Assembly (NCBI GenBank): GCA_965113315.1
Contig: OZ220374.1
Source: Podarcis vaucheri
Taxonomy: Eukaryota
Reading direction: 5' to 3' (one strand)
DNA: 64,000 bases
Shown: positions 3,946-45,325 of the stretch, one piece after another
Layout of the letters: the number at the start of each line of letters is the position of its first letter
How positions within the stretch are numbered: the first letter of the stretch is position 1
Made by a program: the position numbers and the translations under genes
The notes under the pieces: model-generated
What the model saw: the letters and a program-made list of their open reading frames with translations, nothing else
Told to the model about the DNA's origin: nothing
Databases searched by the model: none

Positions 3946-5499
3946 GTGTATGGGGAGGCAACAAAAGATAGTGACCATCCCAAGCACCAGACAGAAGAGA
4001 TGGTCTCGGATGCTCCCAGCATTGCTGAAAACTCTGCCTTCAGCAAAGATTTGCTTTTGGAGAATAAGGAGTATGCACAAACAAATTCTCTTAAGCTGAA
4101 AACAAACTGCTCCATTGTGTTAGACAATGAAAGGAAGACGGGGCCAGAAGAAGCACAATGTCCAACAGTTGAAACTGGAAGACAAAGGTCAGCCAATGCT
4201 GCACTTAGAGAGACTGGTCATGGTTTGCCCCAGAAGGAGCCTCTCAGTGATGCAGGGGCACCTCCTGTCAGTCAAACAGACTCATACACTCAGGAGGCTT
4301 CTCCTAAGTCTCCAGAGGAACAAGAAATGTCTGCTGGGGCCTATAATCAAGTTGTGCTGAGGCATAAAGCACCTAGAAATGTTACCTTAAATAGTATGGA
4401 TGAGGTAGAGTCACCAACTAGCTCTCCAAGTGATGAAAGTCCACCATCAGAGAACATTGCTTTCATGATTACCAAAACAGCAGTCCAGTTTCTGTCCAGT
4501 GGAGAGGTCCACGATATAGTCAACAGGCAGGGAGAGGATGTGCAGACTGTGAACATTGATTCCAGAAGGGAAGCAACATCCCAACAAGGGACGCTAGAGA
4601 ACCGTGAAAGTGAAGATCCCGTGGTCTGCTTGGACAAAAAGCCGGTAATCATTATTTTTGATGAGCCAATGGACATCCGATCAGCTTATAAAAGACTTTC
4701 AACAATATTTGAGGAATGTGATGAAGAGCTGGAAAAAATGATGACAGAAGAGAAGATAGAGGAAGAGGAGGAGGAGGAGGAAGAAGAAGACCAAGAACCT
4801 GAGACACGTGGTGCCCGTAACATAGGAGTTACCAGTGCAGACAGTCCTAGGAGTCATGGGGCTGATGACGCAACAAGCGGCAGATTTGAGCAGGACTTCA
4901 GACAACGCTATCTGTCTAATTCAGCGACTCAAGCCAAACACCTTGAAGGGCAGGAAACAGATGAGATGGATCTCAGGAAATCTCCTTATATTTATGCGCC
5001 ACATCCAGAGTCAAAGCTGGACATTCCTGATACAAAGAAGAAATTCAAGTTTAAATTCCCTAAAAAGCAGCTGGCTGCTCTTACGCAGGCAATCCGCACA
5101 GGGACTAAAACCGGCAAGAAAACTTTGCAAGTGGTTGTGTATGAAGAAGAGGAGGAGGAGGACGGCACTGTGAAACAGCACAAAGAGGCAAAAAGGTTTG
5201 AAATCCCGAGCAGTCGGCCCGATGACGCTTCAGGGAAGGAGGAGCCAAACCTAACTGTACAGACTTCTAGGACTGAAGAAATTAGAAAGAACACATACAG
5301 GACTCTGGACAGCCTGGAGCAGACTATTAAGCAACTGGAGAGCACTATTAGTGAGATGAGCCCCAAATCAGTTTCTGAAGCTCCAGCCCGATCGGAGGGA
5401 ACTTCTGTCCCGGGCTTTTTCTCACCAAAAGAACCCCTAGCGCTGGAAGAGACTATTGCTGATGTTGAACCCCCCTCAATACCGTCAACTTCACGTAAG
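3946..5499 (+). CDS. KIAA1217: KIAA1217/sickle tail homolog, large internal coding exon (518 codons, phase 0/0)
   Basis: Acceptor cttccccctag|GTG at 3945/3946, donor AAG|gtactt at 5499/5500. ORF has recognisable SKT motifs KKPVIIIFDEPMDIRSAYKRLSTIFEECDEELEKM, KKKFKFKFPKKQLAALTQAIRTGTKTGKKTLQVVVYEEEEE and RKNTYRTLDSLEQTIKQLE. Adjacency to ARHGAP21 matches known vertebrate synteny. Confidence 0.95.
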
Positions 5500-6016
5500 G
5501 TACTTTAGTATGAGAAATCACAACTCCAGCTGCTTTCTAAAACAAAATCTGCCGTAATAATCACCATTAAGCAAGAGGTGTCTTCTGATTGGTTTGCTTC
5601 CTTTCGGGTGGCTTGTTTGGTGCATCCATTAGGTGTCTAACAGCTAATAGATTTGTGTGTGGTTTCATTTTTTAAAAATAAAATAAAATCTCTCCTGCTG
5701 ATTGGTGATGGGCAATCAAAGGAAGCTTGGTCAGCTGTGGGCGAATCAAAATACCTGGGACTGCCAGTTAAACGTAGGTTGATCTGTAGTTGAGCCTTTG
5801 ACCTCCATTTTTGATTCCTGTAATTAACACCGGTGGTGTGCCTTGTGGTGTGGATCCTTTTGGTGCTTCCTGTGCATGTCTTGGGGGCTTTGCCTTCTCA
5901 CTCAAAGCAGCTTTGGCCATGGTGCGTGAGCCTCCACCTTGCCCATGCACTGATGCTCACCCCACGTTTCCCTTATCTCTCTCCCCTTCCCCTTGGCACC
6001 CCAACCTTCCTCACAG

Positions 6017-6142
6017 GGTTCAACCAGCACTTCACAGACCAGCAGGATGCCAATCCCTGCAGCCGCAAAAAGTAGACAGCAAAGCAACGCAGACAAAACA
6101 AGCAAACCGCACAAGCTACAGGATCAACGCCAGTACAGACAG
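6017..6142 (+). CDS. KIAA1217: KIAA1217 penultimate coding exon (GSTSTSQTSRMPIPAAAKSRQQSNADKTSKPHKLQDQRQYRQ)
   Basis: ttcctcacag|GGT ... CAG|gtagtt; 126 nt, phase 0/0; resembles recalled mammalian GSSGAPQTSRMP...KLQDPRQYRQ. Confidence 0.9.
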
Positions 6143-6685
6143 GTAGTTTTACCCTAAACCCAAAGCTTGGGTTGGACTTGAAAGCGGATTGTGTGTGTTT
6201 GGTAAATGTGTAAGTCAAGTGACCGACTTGGATGATACCAAATAATGGACTTTTGTCTTCCTGCTGAAATCTGGAATTGGAAATCCAGGGGAATGGGGGT
6301 GGGGCATGAAAATATTTAATGGTAGCATTGTCTCTCCCCCCACCCCATGCTTGCGCATGTCTGCAGTAAACCATCTCCTGCTTTTTTGAGTTTTGTTCCA
6401 GTACTCGGCTGCAGTTTCCTAAATGTCAGCGACAGGAACAGATGCCGTTTGAAGCATTTCAGATGACACTGTCAATACTAACTCCCTGTTTAACAGACCG
6501 CAGTGAGAGCCTATTAACCACCCACCAAAACGTTTCCACCCTCACCTAACAACCCTACAAGCATGGCCAATGTGGTGAACAGCCCAGTTTTTGTGGCGCC
6601 TTCCTTTCCCCACCCTCTTCTCCTGTCAACTTCTCCCACACTCTGTCCATCTTCTGTCCCATAGCTGAGGGAGGGGTGAAGGGGG

Positions 6686-6720
6686 AAGGAAGGAAGGAAG
6701 GAAGGAAGGAGGGAGGGAGG
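6686..6720. repeat. (GGAA)n/(GGGA)n microsatellite
   Basis: Direct inspection. Confidence 0.9.
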
Positions 6721-6884
6721 CCTCCCAGGTCCAGCGCATAGGTGCAAGATTTAGTGCCAGCTTCCGAGAGACTATATCCATTCTTCCTTTCTGCAAGCCT
6801 ATTTTCCCATACAGCTCCTCTTTTTTTAATGTTTATTGTGTATGTTGACTTAAATTGTCTCCCACCATCTTTATTTATTTACAG

Positions 6885-7449
6885 GCTAATGGAAGTGCTA
6901 AAAGAGCTGGTGGGGACAGTAAGGCCACTTCCCTAACCTGTCTGCTTCAAAAATTCCAGCCTTTCCTTCCACCTCTGGGAAAAGTAGCTCTGTTTCTAGT
7001 GGTGATAGCACTAACCTTCTGAGCCCCCCTACTAAAGCCTCTGCCCCTTCTTCTAACCCTCTCAGTCCTCCAACAGGTCGCCCTCCTCATTCCGCTTCCC
7101 TAATCCCCTCTGTCTCGAATGGCTCCTTGAAGTTCCAGAGTCCCGCTCACACAGGTAAAGGTCACCATCCTCTTTCATTCTCAATACAGACTCAAAATGG
7201 CNNNNNNNNNNNNNNNNNNNNNNNNNNNNNNNNNNNNNNNNNNNNNNNNNNNNNNNNNNNNNNNNNNNNNNNNNNNNNNNNNNNNNNNNNNNNNNNNNNN
7301 NNNNNNNNNNNNNNNNNNNNNNNNNNNNNNNNNNNNNNNNNNNNNNNNNNNNNNNNNNNNNNNNNNNNNNNNNNNNNNNNNNNNNNNNNNNNNNNNNNNN
7401 NGTCAGCAAACCCGCCCAATCTTCCTCCGTCACCAAGGAATCAACTTAA
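6885..7449 (+). CDS. KIAA1217: KIAA1217 last coding exon (ANGSAKRAGG...SKIP...NGSLKFQSPAHTGKGHH...gap...VSKPAQSSSVTKEST*), with apparent 1-nt deletion near 6931-6933 and an assembly gap
   Basis: tttatttacag|GCT AAT GGA AGT; homologous frame continues only after a -1 shift at acttCCCtaac; Ns 7202-7401; TAA at 7447-7449 after AAG GAA TCA ACT (recalled mammalian end AKETS*). Confidence 0.85.
7202..7401. other. Assembly gap (200 N)
   Basis: Run of exactly 200 N inside the last KIAA1217 exon. Confidence 1.
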
Positions 7450-8581
7450 AAGCTCTATATCGGCTAGTGCAAGTTGCAGACAAAATCTTCTCAGTTGCTG
7501 ATGTTGACATGCAGCTGAGGAGTGCGTACTGTAAAGTTTCAGGCGGAAATGCGAAACTTGTGCTAAATACTGTGTTATTACAAGTGAGAGACAAAAAGTA
7601 GTTTTGTAGGCATTTGCTGCTGTCAAAATGCCAGAGGGGGGAGGGTGAGGGTGGGGGGTGGTTGGGTTCCCTTCAGCCAGAAACTGTTACAAAAAGTACA
7701 ATGGGAGTATGAATGAAACCAGAAGTATGAGTGCACAGAAATGGATCAAGCATGAAAATAAAGTGTATTAAAGCGAGTTATTTTGTATAAAGCTATTTTT
7801 AAGTATGAGAACTAAACATCGTGTGATAATGCAAAATTATAAAACTGAAACTAAGATATTTTTCTTTTATTTTAGTGTTATCCAAATTTGTTACAGATTT
7901 CTATTTTTGTCAAAAAACAAAAACAAAAAAAACCCTTCATGGTTACTTTCAGAAATCTTTTTTGCCAAAACATTTGATACTATTATAACGTACATTTTGA
8001 TAGTTATGCTGAACACCTTCCTCTGCACAAGCGACAAGAGTTAAGACTGAGACTGACGTGGTAGGAGGCAACGTTACCTATTGCACTGCCATTCAGATTA
8101 TATTTAATAATAATTTGCAATGCCAAGGAAAAAAATGGTTTTTTCATTTAGGCATTTGCTGATTCCCTTTTGCTTCCTTCATTTTTCCATTTTACTGAGA
8201 CCTGGGTAAAAATCATGTAGTACTACCATGTGGATTATTTTTTAAAAGTGTATACTTCTGTACTGTTCTGTATAATGGAAAAACCTCTGTACATATTATA
8301 AATATATAAATATAAATATATAAATATAAAATATAAGTACAGTATGCGGCTGGGCACAGACAAGAGTAGTTTTCGACACCAAAGGTCCATTTTATGCATG
8401 GTTCTCAAGTACACTTTGGGAAAAGGTCAGTGAGGGACAACTGGGAGTTGCCAAGGGGGGGTGGGGTGGGCAGGGATGGGTTTCAAAAAGCAACCTGTGT
8501 GGCAAGGCGAGTGGTTCTTATTGTAAATATCTTATTTGTACAACTCTATAATACAGAAGCGGGGGAAAAAACCTTTGCAAA

Positions 8582-14502: not shown

Positions 14503-16224
14503 TCAAAGATACTGGTAGAATCGAGATCTAACCACCTGGGTCCCAGATAATTTATGAGGATGGGCATCAACTGCTGGGCTGAAGTTGCTTTTGTTCATAT
14601 TCTGGTAGCTTTCTCCATTAACATGGTCTAGTGGCTGCAGCGATCCTGACACTGGTGTTCGAGGAACCAGAGTCAAACTACTACTAGAAGAAAAGCCACC
14701 TTCCTCTGCCCACATCTCTGCAGATGAAGAGAGGTCTGTCTTTGACGAATCTGCTACTCTGCTAGTGTTCTCCCGCTTGGGTTCTCCGCTTTCCCCCACG
14801 CTAAGGTCGGTTGTGCTAGTGCGTAGACGCTCTCGTGCAAGCCAGTCTGAAATGGAGAGGTCCTGTGCTGGGCATTTGGGCTTCAGCCGGTTCACGGCTG
14901 AAGCGTCTTTCTCCCGGTTGGGATTTTTCTCTTGGACTTTCCAAGAATTCAGAACACTTATTTCAGCAAAATCTCTCTGGCCTCCCAAAGTGTGCCTTCG
15001 CCTGATGTTCTTTCTCTTGGCGGTCTCTGCAGAGTTCGATTTCTGACTGCCTACTCCAAACATATCATCTGCGGACGACTTGAGCCGCAGTTTTAACCTG
15101 TCTGTAATCTTGAGTCTCCATGTGGGCTCCTGCTTTTCAGGCTCACTTCTAGCCGACGCAGCTAAGCTGCTGGTTGACTTTCCTTTCTTCATGATGTCAA
15201 ACATTTTGGTCACCGCTGGAGACTCCTTCTCACACTTGGCATCTCCGGAGCCTTCACTGTCTGTCTTGTGCCGGGCTGATTTCTTCCGGGATAGCGTATC
15301 ACATTCAATAAGTTTGTGTGAGCTAAACAGTCTGCGGTTGTCCAGCTTGGGCGTTGAACTTCCCTCTGTGCAACTGACTTCGCTTTCTTCAGAGTTCCTC
15401 CGGCTTCCCTTTGCCACGTCTTGCGCCTTCCCCCTGAACAGCCTTTCCACTGCAGAGCTCGTGGCAAAAACGGGGAAGTCGCTCTCGCTGTCCGATTCCA
15501 CAGGGCGACCTTCGCTGATCAGCTCACTTCTCTCATCGTCAGCCTCCTCTCCTTTACTCTCCGCAACAGACTGCACCTCAGGGCTTAGCATGGTGGAATC
15601 CAAACCAGCTAGGTACGTGGTAGATGAAGTTGTGGAGTAATCAGAAGTGATGGAGCTGACATCAGCTGCTAAAAACTCACCAGGGTTGGCCAACTTTTTG
15701 CAGGAGAATCTGTGCAGAGAAGCCTGTGAAGAAGTGCTAAGCATCGTGCCTGAGTCAGAGACGGTTTCTTCCAGTTGAGAAGAGGCTTGACAAACAGGTG
15801 GTTTCACACAATCTCTCTGGGTACTTAGCCGGAAGCTGAGATTTGGCGATCTCATGTATTTTTGGTGGTAAGGTGTTGTAGGGTCTTCCGGGGGCTCACA
15901 CTCTTTACTTGGCAATGCAGCCTCCCCCTTGGCTGCCACAGAAGGCTTCTTAAGACTGCTCTCTTTTTCCTTTGGAGCTACCGTTCTCACATTTCTCCCT
16001 GCCATTTCCTTCTCCGGTTCCTCTTTAGGTGGGTTATCTTTTGCCGAGCTGCCGCAAAAGTGCTCCCCTTGCTCCCTCTTGAAAAACACATTATCTAACT
16101 CATCTTCGGAGCTGCTGGGTTGCGGTTTCTCTTTTGTTTTTTTCCGCTTGCGACTGGCTGCTGCAAAGATGGAGGACTTAAGCAGTTCTCTGCTATACTG
16201 ATCCTTTCCAGATCCCCAAGAACC
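14503..16224 (-). CDS. ARHGAP21: ARHGAP21 last coding exon ([15 protein letters not shown]...RSRFYQYL*)
   Basis: Acceptor cccatacag|GGT at 16225/16224; 1722 nt to TGA; motifs [51 protein letters not shown] typical of ARHGAP21/23. Confidence 0.95.
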
Positions 16225-16825
16225 CTGTATGGGACAGACAAGTAAACAAAACGAAATACCGTCAGAGGTTAGGAAACAAAAACCCATGTTTTGTTTGACA
16301 CAAAAAAAGCTTACATTTAAAATGTGTGTCACCTAAAGAAGCATTTTTGGACTCTTACTTTAAATGGGCAAGGTGAGAAAGCTCTACCATTGTCACTGAG
16401 CGGGAATGGGCCAGATGACTTCTTTAATAAATTCACCAATTACTTAATAAGCACAGATCTACAGTCATCTGGTCTGAAATGGCTCCCTTTGTCTTAGGAA
16501 TAAACTACCCAGAGCAAACATGAGGAAGAATATCAGAAGGAAGGTAGTGTGGGCTGAAGAGCCTTTTCCTACTGAGTTCTACTAGGATCTGCTCAGTTGA
16601 AGATATTTCCCTCCCCAAAAGTTGTCAGAATAGATAAAGATGATCATTAAAATGTATTTTGAAAGTCAGGATATTATGTATGCAATATCCAAACAGTAAC
16701 ACTATCTTCTAATGCTAATTCATGACTGCAATTTCCAAATATTTTATTATTGCTGTTATTTATTATTATCCTTTCATATATAGTTCAGGGTGATGTACAA
16801 AATATGCTAAAAACACATAAAAACA

Positions 16826-16828
<3 letters not shown>

Positions 16829-16871
<43 letters not shown>
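16829..16871. repeat. (AAT)n microsatellite abutting a MITE
   Basis: Direct inspection. Confidence 0.95.
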
Positions 16872-16872
<1 letters not shown>

Positions 16873-16874
<2 letters not shown>

Positions 16875-17156
16875 GTGGTGCCTCGCAAGACAAAATTAAT
16901 CCGCGAGTCTCTTCGTCTTGCGGTTTTTTCGTCTTGCGAAGCACGGCTATTAGCGGCTTAGCGGCTATTAACGGCTTAGCGGCTATTAGCGGCTTTAAGA
17001 AAAAGGAAACAAACTCGCAAGAACTCGCAAGACGTTTCATCTTGCGAAGCAAGCCCATAGGGAAATTCGTCTTGCGGAACGACTCAAAAAACGGAAAACT
17101 CTTTTGTCTTGCGCGTTTTTCGTCTTGCGAGGCATTCATATTGCGAGGAACCACTG
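16873..17156. mobile_element. Tc1/mariner-type MITE, family A
   Basis: TA|CTGTGGTGCCTCGCAAGAC...TTGCGAGGAACCACTG|TA; repeated CGTCTTGCGA motifs. Confidence 0.85.
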
Positions 17157-17591
17157 TAATTTAAAAAACAGAAAATGGACACCCATGGCAGAGACCTTAT
17201 CATTAACTATATTACATATATTTTCCTGAATGTACTCAAACCCTTTAATTACAGTACAGTATAGTGCTCCGTTTATTATACTATTCTTCTTGCACCAGTG
17301 GTGCTGCCGGTGCCTTTTGCAATATAATCTATATTTACAATAAAAGACTTTCAATCCTTTTGTGGATTTGACCTTTAGAAGATTATAACTGCAAATCTTC
17401 ACCCTACTCACCTGGGAGAAAGACCCACTGAATTTAATCAGACTTACGTCTGAATAGACATTGTTAGGATTGCACTGAAATGCAGTAAAATACCAGGAGT
17501 GTGGCATTTGTCTACTTCCCCACATCTGTATGCAAGTAACACAGCAGATAAATATTTAGCTAGAAGGAAATTTAAAAGTGCAATGATTTAC

Positions 17592-17623
17592 CTTAGATTT
17601 TGCAGAGTCACTAGTAGCTGAAT
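17592..17623 (-). CDS. ARHGAP21: ARHGAP21 32-nt exon (DSATSDSAKSK)
   Basis: tctctcaacag|AT TCA ... AAG|gtaaat; phase 1/0 fits both neighbours. Confidence 0.9.
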
Positions 17624-18638
17624 CTGTTGAGAGAGAGAAAGTCAAAATAGAGCACTTTAGTCATCACTGCACAGAGCTTGATCTCACTCTATAGACAATG
17701 CCGGACGTATGAAAGAAGACAAGCACAGAACAAAATGTGAGAGCAAACAAGTAACAAAATAAATAAATAATCAGAACAAAGTGGATAAGAAGAGCTCACA
17801 AAGATGCAAGCTGCACCACAGAAAGCCACCGCCATGAAAGGATGCCGTGAGTTGTAGGCAGAATCAGCTCAAATGACAGAAATGGCAAAGGAGCCAAGTT
17901 CTTCTAAATAAAGCAGAACAGAAATACTAATATTTATTCAATGTCCTAATACACAGCCCTGCAAAACCGCAGCTGAGAGACCTTTTCAGGATTGTACTCT
18001 GTACGCTCCTGTAAATGACATGCACAATTTTATTTTCATTTTTTTAAGAGCCTTTGGCTACCTTCTGAAACAATTCTCAAAGGTTCTTTTTGGCAAGTCA
18101 TGTTTGTATGCTGCCAAACTGTTTGCACTGGGGTTTACATGTGAAGGCGCCCCAGTTTCATTTTCAGGTGCTCCTCTGAGCTACACATTAAGGAAATTTC
18201 AAATTGTCGCTCGCTAGATTTCCACAGCTATCAGTTTTGTACTCATCTCAAAAAAGAAGCGCTATTATGAAATGGAAAAATGGACACCATAATTTTACTG
18301 TCTGGCAGAAAACGAGGACAGAGGTTAAACAGCTATAAAGGGGATAAGGATAGGCTAGCACAGTGACCAAACGATGTTTGACTTTGCCATTCTCCAAACT
18401 CTCAGGGGGTCCCCATCCCAACCTCAGAATTCATGAGCTGAGCCCCATGCCATGCCCCTTCTGACACATGGCTAATGACTAGAAAGACTGGTAGACCATA
18501 CCATGCTATTTCTCCTCAGGGTCTGCTTCAGAAATAACAAGAAACAGCAGAAACACTTTTAAAAAGTAGCACTGATCTGTTCAAATACTCTTTAAAAGAA
18601 AAAAATTTACAGTACAGATCAACTAATTCTTTGTGCAT

Positions 18639-18781
18639 TTACAAGAAACGGGGGTTTCTGCAGACAAGGCAGCTACAATGTGGGCAACAGTCCTCCTTCT
18701 TCCTACAGTTCCAGCTGTCCATAAGTGACATCACAGAGTCCACTAGTGACATCACCGTGTGATAGACTCCTCCCACTTCTC
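18639..18781 (-). CDS. ARHGAP21: Candidate ARHGAP21 alternative terminal exon (GEVGGVYHTVMSLVDSVMSLMDSWNCRKKEDCCPHCSCLVCRNPRFL*)
   Basis: gttgaaacag|GA GAA GTG is open in the phase-1 frame of the upstream donor until TAA at 18641-18639; minus-strand AATAAA at 18029-18034 and 17933-17938, before the next exon. Confidence 0.55.
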
Positions 18782-19485
18782 CTGTTTCAACATCAGGATA
18801 GAGGGACTGTTTCAATAAAATGCTGAAAAAAGTCTTCTACGGACTAAAACACAAACTAGAAACAAAGGGATAACATTTGTGATCAACAACATGCTTGGTT
18901 AGTGAAACAGTTATGGTGGCAGTGTGGGAAAACGTCACCAAGAGAGTAAGAGCTTTGCAACAGTAGTAGTACTTAGCAGAATAATAAGGTGGCAGTCATT
19001 AAATAGAAGCAACTTATTTAGCAAAATATGAAACATACCCTATTACAAAATACTTAGGGAAAAATTGTGGTTAGTTTTCAAACAAAGTGAACTTTAAGCC
19101 TTCCTGACTTTGCAAATCAGTGCAATTTGAACAGAACGTGGATGCTAAAGCTTTCTGCCATCCCATCGACCACTTACACACTAGCAGGAATCCTGTTCAC
19201 CTCGTGGTAAGAATTACACGAAAAACCATGGTTAATGACACAATCGTGAGCATGCATAGTTCTCATGGTCTAAGAATTACAATTCGGTTGTCCAAGAATG
19301 CATCCCGAACATAGAACATGCATGCAACATGCCTAACCATTGTTCTCCTTTAAACAAAACACTTTCAATCATTTAGATTGGGGGAAATCAAGTTATTAGC
19401 AAATAAAAGGAAATAGAAGATTATAACAAATCATTAGAAGAGAGTTTTCTAGCCTACAGACTAACACTGTCCAGGCAAGAGTTAC

Positions 19486-19591
19486 CTGATACGTCTCCAG
19501 GAGATACTCCCGTCCTTCCAATGTTGGTAAGTAAATGATCTATGTTTGGCACTGGCTGAGATTCTACTGTGTTTTCCTCCTGAACTGCTGT
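19486..19591 (-). CDS. ARHGAP21: ARHGAP21 exon ([35 protein letters not shown])
   Basis: taactgcag|ACA ... TCA G|gtaact; 106 nt, phase 0/1. Confidence 0.92.
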
Positions 19592-25989: not shown

Positions 25990-28276
25990 CTGTAAAATGA
26001 ATTGAGAAATATTGTTCAGACCATGCTTTAAACAACTGAGATTATCTAGCCACATTCAGGAGACAGTAAACCATAAGAAAGACAAAGTAGTATAACTATA
26101 AGCTCAGATATGTGCAAGCTTCATGTACCCCCCCCCACTTCCTGCAAGCAAGGAAGCACACCAGGAACCTTAGCTGACCATTGCTACATCCAAACCCAGA
26201 AACTACAGTTATTGGCTTCCAAAGAAACTATGATAGATAACCATGGTTTAAACCTGACTTCTGAATTCTGGCTTGTTTCGTTCATTAAGCCAGGATTTGG
26301 TCATGCATATATAGTCGATGTATGTAACACGTTAAAAAAGGAAAAAGAAAAGCGGGCAGGGAAGACACAGGAAGGGCAGAATTCAGTGTATAAGATGCTG
26401 TGCGTCTTAAACCAGGGTGCCGACCAGATGCTGTGAACTGTAACACCTATCACCTCAGCTAGTGTTGCGAATGGGAGTTGCAGTCCACAACACGGAGGGC
26501 ACCGGGTTGGCGACCCCTGCCTTGAGCATGGACTGCTATTACACACTGAATTGCAGACATAGCTGAAAACATCTGAAAGAAAGTAGAAGTAATTTTACAA
26601 GCCAAAGCACTGAGGACAAAAATCTGTAAACAGTATACCCTTACCCTGAATTGCATTTATCTTCAATTAACTTTATGTGACTAATGGTTCTTAAAAATCA
26701 CAACTAACTGCACACTTATCTGCCTACCAATCTACACAGGCATTGCAACAGCAGTGGAAAACAGCAACACCTTCTCATCATGTTCTTATGACAAATCCTC
26801 TCCGGGAACAATCATAGTATTCCAAGAAACAGAGTAGCTCGAAACTATGACTAATACCTGTGTAAAAGATCACCAACTATTCATATTCACATCTGCCTGT
26901 GTCTGTGTGTGTGTGTGTGTATCTTAAGCGCACTATTCTTATAAATCTATTCCACATCAAACACGTTATCTGCAGATTCACATTCAATGCAGTCCACTTT
27001 TACAAGACACTCTTCCTGGCTGCTATTAACAACTGATAGTGTCAGAAGTAGCCTCAATGTCCATGAGTAATGGATGCACAACAGTGTAATCCTATACAAG
27101 TCTACTCAGAAGTAAAGCCTGGTTAAGTTTAATGGGAATTACTTCCAGGTAAATGTACTAAGATTGCTAGTCCGAAAGGAGTTATGTTAGGACTCTGCAC
27201 CCTGATCTCTGCTACAATTTTAAAATATTTAAACCTCAGTATTGGATGGGATTTTCAGATGTGCAGAAGGTGTGGATGATAGCCAATTAAATTTGGGTTT
27301 CATAGCAACAGGGTACTTCATATGGAACATTACATCATTAAATGGAAATTCAGACCATCTATGATTTAATCATTCACCATTAGAAGTTACATACACCAAA
27401 AATGATTAATGAGAACAGGAAGGAAAAGCACTAATTAGCAAAAATTCATAAAAAACTGCAATCTATACATACATATCTTGGAGTAAGTATCACTGAATTC
27501 AGTGGGACTTACTTCTGAGTAGATATTCATAGACTTGCACTGTGAAAGCAGTTTAGGTACAACCGAAAAAGCAGTGTTAATTAAAGTTAGCTAAGCTTCA
27601 GTAAAAGTAACTGAGCCTACTTTTTAACCAGTCTAAAGAAGTTAAATAATTTTAACCACTTCCCTTGGCAAATGATGTTGTTGTTAAAGAGCTCAAACAA
27701 AACAGTTTACTAGAGCTTATTTATTTATATCCCACCTTTCCTCAAAGGATTTCAAGGTGGAGGAATACATCATACACTCGCCATATTATCCTTACAACAA
27801 CTTTGTGAGGCAAGGTAGGCTGAGAGGTGTTTACTGGCCCAAAGTTACCCAGAGCTTCTTGGCCGAGTTAGGAACCACACAGCACAACTCTATGCAATTT
27901 TACTCAAAAGTCAGTCTCATTGTGTTTACTTCCTGGTAAATGTGCACAGAACTTCTCCCTTAAGACAGTTATCTTACTTGAATAACGTGCAAATTTTCAG
28001 TAGTAGTTAAAAAAGAAAGTTCAATAGTTTTCTCTACTTTCTCTTTCAAAATATTCTAATTAAGACTCTGACTCTGGCACTTATCTGTAAGTTAAGGACA
28101 AGGAACATGTGGAGCTCCATATATCAATGGACTCCATCAGCCCCAGACAGCATTGTCAACAGACAGCAATGCCAATGATGTAGCCCAACAAACATCCAAA
28201 TGGACACAGATCTCCATCCCTGTACCCCTATTTCTCTTACTGACTGATTCAATTTTTTCCCCTTGGTATTTTTATA

Positions 28277-28929
28277 CAGTGGTGCCCCGCAAGACGAACG
28301 CCTCGCAAGACGGAAAACCCGCTAGACGAAAGGGTTTTCCGTTTTGGAGGCGCTTCGCAAAACGAATTTCCCTATGGGCTTCCTTCGCAAGACGAAAGCC
28401 CATAGGGAAATCTCCGGGACAGCGGGGAAGCGCAGTGCATCTTTCCCACTGTCCTCAGACCTCCTCCGAAGGCTGGCGGTGGGGCGGAAAGCCCTTCTTC
28501 CCGCGCCAGCCTTTGGAAGGCTCCTCCGAAGGCTGGCGGTGGGGCAGAAAGCCCTTCTCCCTGCGCCAGCCTTCGGATGGCTGTCCTGAAGACTTGCGGT
28601 GGGAGGAGGGTTTTCCTTCCCACCGCCAACATTCAGAATGCTGTTCTGAATGTTGGCGGTGGGGAGGAAAAACCCTCCTCCCACCGCAAGCCCCGGGAAC
28701 AGAGGAGAAGCGCTGCGCCCCTTCCCCTCTGTTCCCATACCTGTCCTGAAGGCTTGCAGTGGGGAGAAAAGCCCTTCTCCGCACCGCCAGCCTGGCAAGC
28801 GGTTTCCATAGGAACACATTAATTGATTTTCAATGCATTCCTATGGGAAACCGTGCTTCGCAAGACGAAAAACTCTCAAGAAGAAAAAACTTGCGGAACG
28901 AATTAATTTCGTCTTGCGAGGCACCACTG
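28277..28929. mobile_element. Tc1/mariner-type MITE family A, long variant with internal ~60-bp hairpin repeat array
   Basis: TA|CAGTGGTGCCCCGCAAGACGAA...TTCGTCTTGCGAGGCACCACTG|TA. Confidence 0.9.
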
Positions 28930-36570: not shown

Positions 36571-37127
36571 TCAGTGTTACAATCAAGCGCAAAGTCTCAT
36601 AATACCACTGGCATCTTACAGTTCATTCAGGAGGAATTTAATATAGATAAATGAATGAAACCTGGTTCAGCAATATGAGATATTTTTTATCTCACACCAG
36701 AGGGACACTCCGTTGTCACCCGAGACAGATGGAAGCTAACAGCCAACAATAACAACAGCAGGCCCAATCAATACCTGTTTACTTGGAGTCAGTTTAACTG
36801 AACTGAATGGGAATCACTCCAAAGTAAGTCTGTTCAGAAATGCAACCTTATATTCAGTATTAAACATCACAAAAATGTGAATGATTCATGGGGATTAGAT
36901 TACACTCAAACTTTGAACATTTGTTTTATTATTATTGAACCCTTTTTAATATAGCAGGATCATATTGTATTTGAAAATATTCTTGCTGAAAACGCAAGAA
37001 GCAAAGTCTGTATCAAAAAGTTTTTACTGATATTAGAAATAATTGCTTTAAAATTAGCATGAGCTTTTAGGGGTTATAAGCAGCTGAAAAGACTAAAAAT
37101 GGTAGCCAACTAAAACTCATTCAAGTA

Positions 37128-37480
37128 CAGTGGTGCCTCGCAAGACGAAATTAATTTGTTCCGTGAGTTTTTTCGTCTAGTGAATTTTTCGTCTTGCGAA
37201 GCATGGTGTCGGGAAAGTTTTGGAAAAGCTTCAAAAATCACCAAAGTCTTTAAAAACCTCAAAAAGGCTACCACACCGCATGCTATGAGTTGCTCCTCGA
37301 AGTCAAGTTGCAACTGTATTAACGGTGTTAAGAAAAAGGAAACAAACTTGCAAGACGTTTTCGTCTTGCGAAGCAAGCCCATAGGGAAATCCGTCTTGCG
37401 AAGCAGCTCAAAAACCACAAAACCCTTTCGTCTAGCGAGTTTTTCGTCTTGCGAGGCATTCATCTTGCGAGGTACCACTG
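37128..37480. mobile_element. Tc1/mariner-type MITE, family A
   Basis: TA|CAGTGGTGCCTCGCAAGACG...TCTTGCGAGGTACCACTG|TA. Confidence 0.9.
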
Positions 37481-38287
37481 TACTATTTTCATCATATTAA
37501 AAGGGAGGAGAGAAGAATCTTGGGCACAAGCCAATTCCATTAAAAATCAACATACCAGGCATTTGACAGATTATGGCAAGCTGGTTGATGGCCTATTGGA
37601 TGAAATGTTCTTGCGGCTGAAGCTTTTGTTACTTTTTTACTAGGTTTGTTTATGGGTTATTGGAATGGTTTTATTGAAATGTATTGTTTCATAAACTGTG
37701 TCTATTAGCACGTGGCGTCAATACTTCTCAGTACTTCTTCACTTGCAATGGGTGCATGGCAAGTTTGCATCTTCAGACCCTTCAGCCCTGATGACATCGT
37801 GGAGACATGTCTTGGACTACGTAGATGGCAGGGGCAAGCTGTGTTTACCACCTGATTCTAAGGCACTCTAGAGTTCCAATTGGATTTGGACTTAAAGGGA
37901 GGGGAATGAGCAACCTCTACTGATCTCTCACCCCAAAGCCACTTTGGGGTTTCTTCTGGGCTAAAAACTTCAACCACCCAAATTTTAAAACCTTGCTTCC
38001 CTAAGATGGAATTTTTCCTGCAGCTGTTCTTGGAATATTTTATGAATCCATGGGAACTACTTCTCCCCATGAATCCTTGCACCAAGGATGATGGGAGGAT
38101 CTGATGGAGTGCCTACAACCAGCCACTAGATCTTTAGAGAAAGAAAAGAGAGTGGTGCTGCCAGAAGAACTCTTTAACATTTGTTTAATCCATTACGAGC
38201 CAAACCCAAACTCTAAATGAAGTTTGCGGTTTGCCTCATAAAGGAGTCAAGTTGTTTCCCCAATTTGGATCTGCAGTGATATTACTA

Positions 38288-38485
38288 CAGTTTGTTTCCT
38301 TTTTCTTAACACCGTTAATACAGTTGCGACTTGACTTCGAGGAGCCTTTTTTGAGGTTTTTAAAGACTTTGGTGATTTTTGAAGCTTTTCCAAAACTTTC
38401 CCGACACCGTGCTTCGCAAGACGAAAAATTCGCTAGACGAAAAAACTCACGGAACGAATTAATTTCGTCTTGCGAGGCACCACTG
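38288..38485. mobile_element. Family A MITE, partly deleted, inverted relative to the 37128 copy
   Basis: Near reverse complement of ~37128-37350; right TIR ...GAGGCACCACTG|TA intact. Confidence 0.88.
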
Positions 38486-38563
38486 TAATTGGAAGTAAAA
38501 GAGCTCCACATTTGTACGATGAAACCACAATGCCAAGCTACTGCCACCTTTCCAAAGCGCATA

Positions 38564-38789
38564 CAGTGGTACCTTGGGTTACATACGCTTCAGGTTACAG
38601 GCTCCGCTAACCCAGAAATACTACCTTGGGTTAAGAACTTTGCTTCAGGATGAGAACAGAAATCATGCTACGGCAGCACGGCAGCAGCGGGAGGCCCCAT
38701 TAGCTAAAGTGGTGCTTCAGGTTAAGAACAGTTTCAGGTTAAGAACGGACCTCCGGAACGAATCAAGTACTTAACCCGAGGTACCACTG
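38564..38789. mobile_element. Tc1/mariner-type MITE, family B
   Basis: TA|CAGTGGTACCTTGGGTTA...TAACCCGAGGTACCACTG|TA; internal CAGGTTA repeats. Confidence 0.9.
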
Positions 38790-42339: not shown

Positions 42340-43365
42340 TTGTACTTCACCCCCACCCCTACCAATCCCACTTTCAAATTTATTCAGCATATTGCTATGA
42401 CCTTCACTTGCCAGTTCCTCAATGGGGGCCTCTTTTATTACATAACAAGCACAATCTTCTTTTCCTTGCTTCCAAGGCTGCAAACCGACAAACACACTAC
42501 TCCCAGACCACAATTCTTCAATATCTTCTTGACCTCTATGTTCTTAATATTCTGTCTGGTTTTCCCATTTCTGCTTTTTATCCTTACAAATTACCTTATA
42601 TTTTACTCTAGGGTTTTAAAGATATGTGCACATACACAAATTCAATTGTTTCTGTTTTACAAAGCTTTGCAAAAGATTGACAGCAATGACTGAGCTAAAT
42701 AAGGAAGAGCCACACATGGCAATACAGATTCATTCAAATTATTGCAGAATAAACCTTTAAAATCACTTGTAGCAGTGAGGGTGTATAGCAAAACTTTTAA
42801 AATTAAATATTAACTTCTTAAGCATTTATCATGTCACAAAACTGCCTACTACTGTTGTTATAGGTAAATACATATTAGATGCAACACAGAAAATTAAGCA
42901 TGTTTATGTTCTGTTAACATCAGTGGGATTAAGGCCCCATCACTTACACTGTTGCATGGGAGCAGTTTCCCCATGGCATTTCTGCACACAACTGTGATGT
43001 GTCTGTGGATATCGGAACCAGGAAAAAGTCTAATGGCACAGGTTGCTCACATACCTAGGAGGGGCAGTACCAATCAGGAGAAAATCTTTCCCCAGTCAAG
43101 TAGTTGCAATAATCATACATACACTATAGTCACACTGGAAAACATTACAGGAAAACAGCTCCCACACATGCAGCTGTGAAACAGGCCTAGAAATACTGGA
43201 GCTGAACATTGTATTTTCTAGATTATACCCACAAAAATTATGAAACTCAAATAAATTAACTAGAATGATGCATAATAATTAAAAAAAATAAAATAATAAA
43301 ACCAAGTGGCAGATCCAAAGCCATGTATCAGAAGCAGAGAGATGAAAACCAATGGTTTAGCTCAC

Positions 43366-45325
43366 CTATGAATGGAATGCATGCCAAGGAATCACCAGGT
43401 GTGCTGGCGCTGGAAGCTTTCCTTTCTTCTATTATTTTTATATGGACCTCTCGACGTGCATCATTGGGCAACCAACAAGTAGTCTCCGGGGCTGGCTCTT
43501 GATCATTTACTGCTAAGATGTAGGACTGATGCCGCAAAGGCTGTGGTGTCTGATGGCCAGAAGGAGACTTTTCTCGCAAGACAACTGCTTCTGTATCCTC
43601 ATCTACAACATCCCTTGGCTGGCTCTCAGATTCTTTTATATTTTCCTTTTCAAACTCTTGAACCTTCTGTCTAATAGAGACATCCAAGTTAACAGAGGTA
43701 GTTAAATGCTCACTCATCTGTGGGACAAATTTGGCAGAAGCTAAACAGGTAGTAGGGGATAGAGTACTTGTGTCTATTTCTGTTTTGTGGCCTGGCACAC
43801 TTTTTGCTTGTATCCTTGATTGTTGATTCAACAAACCACTGTTGTACATATGATTTAGTTCTCTTTGGTCTGCGGTAGTAACACTATCCAGGCTCTGATT
43901 AAGGGAAAGCGACGGTTTTGCTGCATAGGGTACAGAAGTCTTCAATGAGTTGCTTCTTGTGCTTCTAGCTATTGAGTGAGATGATCTTTCCTGAAAAACG
44001 GTTGTAGGCTTTGAAGTTCCACCAGAGGTTGGCAAATCTCTGGCAGGCTGCAGTGATTTTGCATCAGGTGGAGCCTTCTGGAACTGTGGGGTTGACCCTG
44101 AGGCTCTGCTGTTTATTCGTCTACCATCTGAGCCATAAGCACCCGGAGCCACAGAAAAATTTGAGCCTCGAAGAGACAAGTGAAATGCATGCTGCCGGGG
44201 TCTCTCATAAATACCTCGCCGATCATCTTGCTCAGTAAAGCCAGTCCACTTGTTAGTCTTTTTTCTGTCTCTGTTTGAATCTGCAACAAGATTCTCAGTG
44301 TGAAAATTTTCTAATGTTTCACCCTGCTTTCCTAAATAGTCCCAAGACTGTGTCCTGTGATTCCTGGGGCTGATAGATGGTGAGGTTAGAGCATCTTGAG
44401 AGGCACTCCTTGGCCACTCCTTCAACAATATAGGATCTTCAAGTCTTTCCTGGGACACACTCCTTTGCCGTATCTGAATGGACTGTGGGACCCTATCATG
44501 AGAGGTGCTTCTGCGTCGTACCTGTGAAACACTGCGATTTGGTACCACTTGATTATAATCTGTTGTGTTCTGAGATGCTGCTCTTAAACTATCTAACCTT
44601 TCCTGTATGGTTCTGCAGCCATACATGTGCAAACGTCTATTATCAATGTACTCTTTGTAGGTTTTGTAATTTTTCCAGTCTATGGTTTGGTGGGCATTTG
44701 GAGAAGTGTAGTGATTGGTAGTGACAGAGGGAGAACCTGCACTTTGAGTAGGAGATCTAGTATTTGAGATCCCTTCTGGATGCCCTCCATAGCTTCCAGA
44801 TTTGCTAGGTATTCCATTGGGATCTATTGGCCTTGTGAGTGGCGTCTGAGGAAGTACAATGGCAGTGGGCATTGGAGAAGGTGGTGATGTGGTTCGTGCT
44901 TTTGTTTTAATAGTGGTTTGTTCCTTAAGACCGTATCTTACTTCTTCTATCCGATGTGATGGACCAGTATGATTTATTCTACAGGATGACAAGTCTACAG
45001 CCTTCTCGGAAGGCACAACAACAGTTCTTACAGTCTCGTTGTTGCAAACACAGACAGCTGTGTTAGATTTTGCAATATCTGTTGGGGATGGAGGCACTTG
45101 TATTTCCATTCTGTAGGCCTTTTCTGGTTGTGCTGATGTCCTTACAGGTCTACTAGCTGGCTGCTTACCAAGTGAAGAGTCAGGAGGTGCTTTCTCAATA
45201 TCTTGTGCCTTGACAGAAGGTGGAGATGCTAACCGAGGATAACATATTGGTGGTGGTTCAGGTATGTTGCGGGCATTACCACTGTAAGCTTCATTGCCTT
45301 TCAGGTAGGCATCTTGGGAATATGC
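43366..45325 (-). CDS. ARHGAP21: ARHGAP21 large internal exon ([30 protein letters not shown]...DSLACIPFI)
   Basis: ctttgtatag|GCA ... ATA G|gtgagc; 1960 nt, phase 0/1; in frame with the 593-aa ORF; motifs [42 protein letters not shown]. Confidence 0.95.

Follow-up and report, generated by a model that had tools for sequence, protein, structure and literature searches.

A conserved exon within an ARHGAP21 intron, predicted to provide an alternative helix-plus-cysteine C-terminus in bony vertebrates

ARHGAP21 has been studied so far as a 250-kDa PDZ-PH-GAP protein positioned by Arf1 and other partners, and it has been presented as the Golgi GAP for Cdc42 which is recruited by Arf1 (PMC6952795). 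The locus of the lizard Podarcis vaucheri raises the question of whether the same gene also codes for a shorter protein, the C-terminus of which would be supplied by an exon lying within the intron downstream of the GAP domain. The window analyzed here is a stretch of 64,000 nucleotides (contig OZ220374.1, assembly GCA_965113315.1) which carries ARHGAP21 on its minus strand. The exons of the wall-lizard model P0003, which comprises PDZ, PH and RhoGAP domains, align with it one after another between 57755 and 18642, most of them at 85-100% identity. The intron under study (19485-17624) measures 1,862 nt and is in phase 1. Canonical splicing across it leads to a low-complexity tail of 584 residues (11 + 573), with a basic RKRKK cluster near the start of its last coding exon. 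An initial annotation of this DNA had proposed that a hidden last exon replaces some 585 residues right after the GAP domain. The size of the exchange is essentially as proposed, while its position has to be corrected: the last GAP helix ends at residue 1069 of P0003 and the alternative tail starts at 1116, ~45 residues later.

The acceptor AG within the intron (Table 1) indeed opens a phase-1 frame of 47 residues and a stop, and the two nearest upstream AGs (18824-18823 and 18808-18807) close after 3 and 4 codons, as had been noted. The tail begins with a putative helix (~residues 3-24), after which the order is C-R-K-K-E-D-C-C-P-H-C-S-C-L-V-C. The six Cys, including the CPHC and CLVC pairs, occupy residues 26, 32, 33, 36, 38 and 41, and the internal repeat exists in an imperfect form, with 16 of 21 bases equal. 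Of the 20 bases ahead of the acceptor, 12 are pyrimidines, while the canonical acceptor has 16. The features of the frame in a single genome are close to chance: in 500 dinucleotide shuffles of the intron, a frame of at least 48 codons appeared behind a YAG in 82%, and 12% had such a frame with six Cys. The chance expectation for AATAAA in the intron is 0.7. The frame is thus unremarkable in one genome, and is settled as real because it is conserved across species.

Table 1. Features of the ARHGAP21 intron and its surroundings in the window (all on the minus strand).
Feature	Position	Strand	Remarks
Common upstream exon	19486..19590	-	phase-1 donor CAG/GTAACT, ends at 19486
V-x-S-Q-P in upstream exon	19486..19590	-	similar to zDHHC17/13 ankyrin-binding motif
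(T)GCATG cluster	19252..19332	-	RBFOX-type motif
ACTAAC then GCATG	18889..18904	-	~115 nt upstream of acceptor; common to L010
Cys-tail exon acceptor AG	18782..18783	-	CAG/G; present also in L010 and L011
Alternative exon, coding part	18639..18781	-	47 residues (first codon split) + TAA 18641-18639
Two 21-nt copies	18714..18755	-	18755-18735 and 18734-18714; VMSLVDS / VMSLMDS heptads
55-nt run identical in window and L010	18479..18533	-	longest identical run after stop
First AATAAA	18029..18034	-	not conserved in L010
Second AATAAA	17933..17938	-	retained in L010 with U-rich stretch downstream
Canonical next exon	17592..17623	-	32 nt, DSATSDSAKSK
Canonical last coding exon	14503..16224	-	573 codons, Ser-rich; absent from short isoform

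A search with the tail peptide yielded 17 proteins among 20 candidates, consisting of 11 named ARHGAP21 models and six unnamed read-through frames. Tail identity is 100% in tuatara, buzzard and wall lizard, 98% in tinamou and gecko and 94% in goat, followed by koala, catfish and piranha (85%), cichlid (81%), snailfish (77%) and huchen (75%), the teleosts thus ranging from 75 to 85%. Carps, salmonids, grenadier, shad and mosquitofish also carry the tail, in models which include both 21a and 21b. The bony vertebrates represented here span ~430 million years. The tail identities of buzzard, goat, piranha, cichlid and huchen (100, 94, 85, 81 and 75%) compare with 96, 94, 86, 88 and 85% for the GAP domain (the mammal being cattle in the latter case), and with 50-76% for the canonical last exon. 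Judged from these alignments, the tail is conserved like the GAP domain and better than the canonical last exon. The complete six-Cys pattern, W-x-C-R…C-C-x-[HQ]-C-S-C-L-x-C, is found in 38 of 41 tail-bearing proteins, the other three being models which splice out in mid-exon. The invariant non-Cys residues include W24, R27, L39 and P44, and His35 is replaced by Gln in most fish.

At the DNA level, two of the three loci found in a metagenome scan are orthologous, one of them bird-like (L010) and one fish-like (L011). The third (L012, 50% over 23 residues) was an unrelated chance match and was left out. The initial annotation had raised the case of orthologous introns devoid of the frame; both orthologous loci retain the acceptor, the phase and the stop, as does the window (3 of 3 loci). 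Over the exon, the window and L010 differ by five synonymous and no non-synonymous changes. The comparison with L011 gives 9, 1 and 15 differences at codon positions 1, 2 and 3, respectively (pN 0.13, pS 0.38). The other two sense frames of the exon contain 2-4 stops, and the indels among tails are in-frame (one additional codon in P0036, P0037 and P0287, three residues fewer in P0038). In the fish-like locus, conservation starts at the AG, ahead of any Met, and stops at the stop codon. An independent micro-ORF from Met11 was also considered, and was rejected since the invariant G4-G5-V6-Y7 precede the first Met.

The conservation is not restricted to the amino-acid sequence. The flanks are likewise conserved with L010 (79% over 815 nt), and among codons for the same residue in the window and L011, 22 of 30 are identical in the exon, versus 8 of 24 in the constitutive exon that precedes it (Fisher p 0.006), the same lizard-bird test giving 38 of 43 versus 65 of 81 (p 0.32). 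Synonymous sites are thus unusually held, and part of the conservation is therefore at the RNA or DNA level; we read this constraint as splicing signals which may be overlaid on a coding exon. None of 48 predicted RNA pairs covaries, in a set of three sequences with little power, and Rfam returned nothing at gathering level (best E 0.81). The conserved flanks and synonymous sites, along with tail models that may share one template, could also reflect a non-coding element, acting in splicing or as an enhancer, with an open frame that gives rise to little or no protein and entered the gene models through automated annotation. Such an element is very unlikely in view of the second codon positions, which change once versus nine and fifteen times for the first and third, the in-frame indels, the conservative substitutions, with which all 20 variants retain the moment of the helix, and the bounding of fish conservation by the AG and the stop. 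The exon is very probably real and coding, and the proposal of a conserved, in-frame alternative exon with its own stop is borne out by the ortholog comparison.

The exon cannot, on the other hand, be called hidden, as it had been initially, since automated UniRef and NCBI models of at least 11 species already join the tail to the upstream exon. These comprise, in UniRef, A0A670JB15 (Podarcis muralis), A0A8D0HMX4 (tuatara), A0A8C0AT43 (buzzard), A0A8C2RGR4 (goat) and A0AAR2J142 (piranha), and, in NCBI, XP_020836159.1 (koala) and TNN44889.1 (snailfish). They share with the window the predicted junction …SPGDVS/G (…SPG[DE]VS) and the 47-residue end, and they are predictions without a functional note; many are devoid of the PDZ domain, and none has the (A)DPEEK-stop option described below. 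The tail sequence itself is thus not new, being present in automated databases, yet the isoform appears unstudied. No description of the short-tail isoform was found in the literature searched, which takes in few subscription journals, and long-read or palmitoylome tables outside it may list the isoform. The portions available of PMC9892061, PMC11186590, PMC10171801, PMC6941957 and PMC10718637 hold nothing informative on it, Arhgap21 is absent from one supplement of PMC6411841, and the human ARHGAP21 isoforms quoted in PMC10249030 differ from the Cys-tail form.

In the 127 proteins which contain the upstream anchor (145 were examined), the sequence beyond it is canonical in 102, enters the tail in 19 and runs into the intron in six. 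The tail occurs in none of the five Logan (assembly-derived) proteins among the 120 of 396 matches listed, all five of which are canonical, and in none of 138 mammalian cluster members listed (ten clusters, at most 15 per cluster). The proteins and cluster members listed include no tail-bearing entry from human or mouse. Its absence from the Logan proteins and mammalian cluster members indicates that the Cys-tail isoform, known from gene models, is probably minor or tissue-restricted. The PDZ domain is missing in 14 of 18 full-length tail models, which mostly start at one internal place, some of them without Met. This common start suggests that the models were projected from one template and do not count as independent pieces of evidence. 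Most tail models (P0001, P0002, P0005, P0007, P0022-P0024 and P0035-P0037) begin at MAQ inside a large exon. The codon aligned to this start is Lys in the window (VKAQ, ORF 43328-45325), and would thus offer this lizard no start for a PDZ-less form. The koala entry (P0015, XP_020836159.1) is a 138-residue "ARHGAP21-like" protein from a 44-kb contig, with a spliced tail and unusual substitutions. It may have arisen by retrocopying of the short isoform, in which case spliced short-isoform RNA would be proven for marsupials. With regard to other proteins, a profile search over 1.84 billion representatives gave 12 matches, all of them the ARHGAP21 tail, and an ESM Atlas search with the tail gave no usable match. 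The lizard genome contains one real copy, the next match (E 0.119) having three stops.

The composition of the tail suggests how it may function. Of residues 6-24, 11 of 19 are hydrophobic and lie on one broad face, with Ser, Thr, His and two Asp opposite, and the hydrophobic moment of 0.45 exceeds that of shuffled sequences (p 0.001), with its peak at 100-105 degrees. The amphipathic helix suggested at the outset is supported by this computed periodicity, which is retained in all 20 distinct tail helices (moment 0.46-0.57, 0-1 Lys/Arg); the AlphaFold tail model likewise places a helix at residues 3-23, at low confidence. ALPS-type helices, which sense curvature, are amphipathic with few charges, moderate hydrophobicity and a polar face rich in Ser, Thr and Gly; the tail helices have an S+T+G count of 3-6 and a K+R count of 0-1, but a mean hydrophobicity of 0.63-0.81 and 1-2 Asp. 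Directly behind the helix, residues 25-47 include 6-7 Cys and 3-5 Lys/Arg. A helix, basic residues and clustered Cys at a free end represent the usual anatomy of S-acylated anchors, and all three adjoin one another in the tail, acylation itself being a prediction. A CaaX box is absent, the tail ending in -CRNPRFL with the last conserved Cys seventh from the end.

The same short isoform might alternatively carry a metal-bound or protein-binding module, with zinc bound by the six Cys and a heptad helix that dimerizes or docks, either onto a partner or onto the GAP domain. Such a module would account for the heptad repeat and for the strict conservation of the six Cys, with their two CxxC pairs, and of W24, R27, L39 and P44, since lipid anchors usually need less. 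We consider it doubtful, however, as the two CxxC pairs (C33-x2-C36-x-C38-x2-C41) are separated by a single residue, too close for the usual Cys4 ribbon, whose two knuckles need a spacer of sufficient length to fold, and the His within the cluster is not kept in most fish. The hydrophobic face, moreover, is wider than the seam of a two-helix coiled coil. The tail has neither a Pfam family at cut-off nor a solved relative, a result which bears neither way on the module, its best matches being non-significant throughout (Pfam E 0.2, PDB sequences E 0.17, Foldseek E 9.8 and, for the low-confidence model, VIA Z 2.8). The structural models themselves are of low confidence (pTM 0.28 and 0.32), and the full-length model, with a mean pLDDT of 38.9, is too poor to assess packing of the tail against the GAP domain.

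The membrane-anchor reading is also consistent with a finding in mouse. S-acylation of ARHGAP21 is reported to be significantly lower in zDHHC17-deficient animals, in a passage that cites earlier work and names neither isoform nor site (PMC4571948). The tail provides a concrete candidate site for it. What counts against this assignment, besides the unnamed isoform, is that 18-23 Cys are present in the long form too. The strict ankyrin-binding motif of zDHHC17/13 is (VIAP)(VIT)xxQP, which the T-V-E-S-Q-P ahead of the junction in the window does not match. V-x-x-Q-P is present in the upstream exon of 19 of 20 proteins, and the strict motif at that site in four of 20, all of them teleost; mammals have a strict motif at another site, near residue 224-232. 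Real zDHHC17 motifs are looser than the strict consensus, according to PMC5655499, and the sequence in the window may therefore still bind. In SNAP25, as described in PMC7247313, a short flexible stretch separates clustered Cys (CGLCVCPC) from a VVASQP motif. ARHGAP21 resembles it in having V-x-S-Q-P ~50 residues upstream of a Cys cluster, yet differs in the reversed order, in a longer spacer that holds the helix, and in the Thr (rather than V, I, A or P) which amniotes exhibit at the first motif position.

An alternative last exon requires a 3' end of its own. Both AATAAA noted initially are present, the first of which is absent from L010, leaving the second as the only conserved one. It is likely the poly(A) signal predicted for the short isoform, which would have a 3' UTR of ~0.7 kb; the comparison rests on L010, the L011 sequence ending 280 nt past the stop. 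The intron thus combines a conserved in-phase acceptor, a stop and a poly(A) signal ahead of the next exon. An AATAAA and a TGCATG behind the stop in L011 were left out of the counts, as they lie in a stretch that we take to resemble a common fish repeat. Around and below the conserved signal, 17582-18011 (-) aligns with L010 over 436 nt at 79% identity, and includes, just upstream of the signal, an identical run of 33 nt (17961-17993, -). This conservation likely reflects 3'-end or splicing control. The 702 nt ahead of the acceptor (19485-18784) contain five GCATG, presumably RBFOX-type motifs, versus 0.58 expected, while L010 has two versus 0.51 (p 0.09) and L011 one. Seven motifs were tried over six regions, and only the lizard GCATG excess is therefore strong. 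The ACTAAC listed in Table 1 is assumed to be a QKI- or branch-site-like motif.

Downstream of the stop, the 55-nt run shared with L010 contains a second acceptor (an AAG/CAG tandem), a phase-1 frame (A)DPEEK closed by TAG at 18508-18506, and one GCATG. The unnamed read-through proteins P0006 and P0012 end in ADPEER and ADDEEK at the same place, and 18479-18533 could possibly encode a third C-terminus or a stop-bearing microexon of 21/24 nt. The run also covers the only donor-like site of the region (ATG/GTATGG, intron start 18501), which is retained in L010. This raises a further explanation, in which the exon, or the 21-nt piece 18522-18502, serves mainly as a regulated cassette: splicing from 18501 to the 32-nt exon would introduce a premature stop, and the resulting RNA decay or truncated GAP would tune the dose. 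The geometry would permit it, given that decay is elicited when a later junction follows the stop at a distance of more than 50-55 nt. With 169 nt between it and the last junction, the TAA would be sensitive to decay, and the TAG of the small piece, with only 36 nt, would escape. The strong synonymous constraint and the lack of the tail in the assembled proteins listed would fit as well. Nevertheless, donor 18501 is weak (2.3 versus 3.2-5.6 for four neighboring donors, by an approximate scoring matrix) and was not seen in L011, a conserved poly(A) signal lies downstream, and purifying selection on 47 residues with invariant Cys implies a protein which is used. A mainly regulatory cassette is consequently regarded as unlikely.

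The paralog ARHGAP23 provides a comparison. Its exon layout in the lizard is the same as that of ARHGAP21, and no homolog of the Cys tail was found in 29.7 kb around the lizard ARHGAP23 intron (best E 0.26). The equivalent intron contains a very long pyrimidine tract and CAG, i.e. a strong acceptor (locus L007:3357-3377, -; G000:C34), leading into AELPEL-stop. Human ARHGAP23 isoform 2 (UniProt Q9P227-2) is truncated at residue 1138 and ends in ADLLEI, as quoted in PMC10249030. It resembles the short ARHGAP21 in that a brief alternative end takes over not far past the GAP domain, yet this end has only six residues, without a helix or Cys. From its position, the human ADLLEI end is inferred to lie in the intron equivalent to that of ARHGAP21, and AELPEL-stop is a candidate counterpart of it in the lizard; the six-residue ends give no more than a hint of homology. 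With short ends of both genes at one intron, truncation there looks like a family trait. The conserved second acceptor of ARHGAP21, with its (A)DPEEK-stop, and the matching truncating-exon candidate in ARHGAP23 are the new candidates to emerge from this analysis.

Taken as a whole, the evidence inclines us, by a modest margin over doubt, to the view that this conserved exon is an alternative last exon and that its 47-residue tail anchors a shortened RhoGAP by means of an amphipathic helix and S-acylated Cys. In such a scheme, donor 19486 would be joined to the weak acceptor 18781 in some tissues, probably under RBFOX/QKI-type control, and the RNA would be cleaved past the AATAAA at 17938-17933. 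The short protein would retain the Arf1-binding PH domain and the GAP domain, and would dispense with the 584 low-complexity residues and their basic cluster. Residues 3-24 of the tail would form a helix that rests on the bilayer by a broad hydrophobic side, its polar face being rich in Ser and Thr, and a Golgi zDHHC enzyme, possibly zDHHC17 by way of the QP motif of the upstream exon, would acylate part of the six-Cys cluster. The GAP thus anchored would act on membrane Cdc42/RhoA in a reversible manner, with less reliance on the partners of the long tail.

The design of a spliced, acylated C-terminus is already known from Cdc42-palm and others. SynGAP is a GAP located by its spliced alternative C-termini, and the STREX exon of the BK channel is an alternatively spliced, Cys-rich, palmitoylated and membrane-binding internal cassette with a polybasic helix. 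The helix of the ARHGAP21 tail is uncharged to acidic, unlike that of STREX, and the parallel is one of design rather than of sequence. Cdc42-palm of the brain is a relocated Rho-pathway protein, palmitoylated on an alternative C-terminus which is spliced along with its 3' UTR (PMC7802216; 10.1101/366369), and Cdc42 is a substrate of ARHGAP21. The two nevertheless differ, in that Cdc42-palm is a GTPase with a CCaX end and a swap of about ten residues, while the GAP would drop 584, has no CaaX, and is acylated by prediction. A broader reading, speculative and improbable in its entirety, would join these lines: the intron, common to ARHGAP21 and ARHGAP23 since their duplication, would act as a C-terminal switch between a long scaffold tail, a bare (A)DPEEK resembling ADLLEI/AELPEL, and an anchor of helix plus Cys which is found across bony vertebrates and unique among proteins. 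The anchored form, which neurons or muscle would produce from a PDZ-less start with RBFOX controlling it, would be the zDHHC17-dependent S-acylated ARHGAP21 of the mouse. Cycled by its lipid, it would be the GAP dedicated to membrane-bound Cdc42, of which Cdc42-palm is one pool.

If real, the short form would have a different cellular address from that of long ARHGAP21, and could escape C-terminal antibodies, tags and knockdowns directed against the long 3' end. Coding variants in a sequence which many annotations designate as intron would also become interpretable. Elsewhere in the window, long frames at 3946-7501 (+) mark a convergent neighboring gene, which we take to resemble KIAA1217/sickle tail, and a run of N occurs within 7200-7400. 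A repeat which starts with TVVPR… and has related frames on both strands (16807-17160, 28096-28840, 37110-37643 and 38236-38589) is probably a small DNA transposon.
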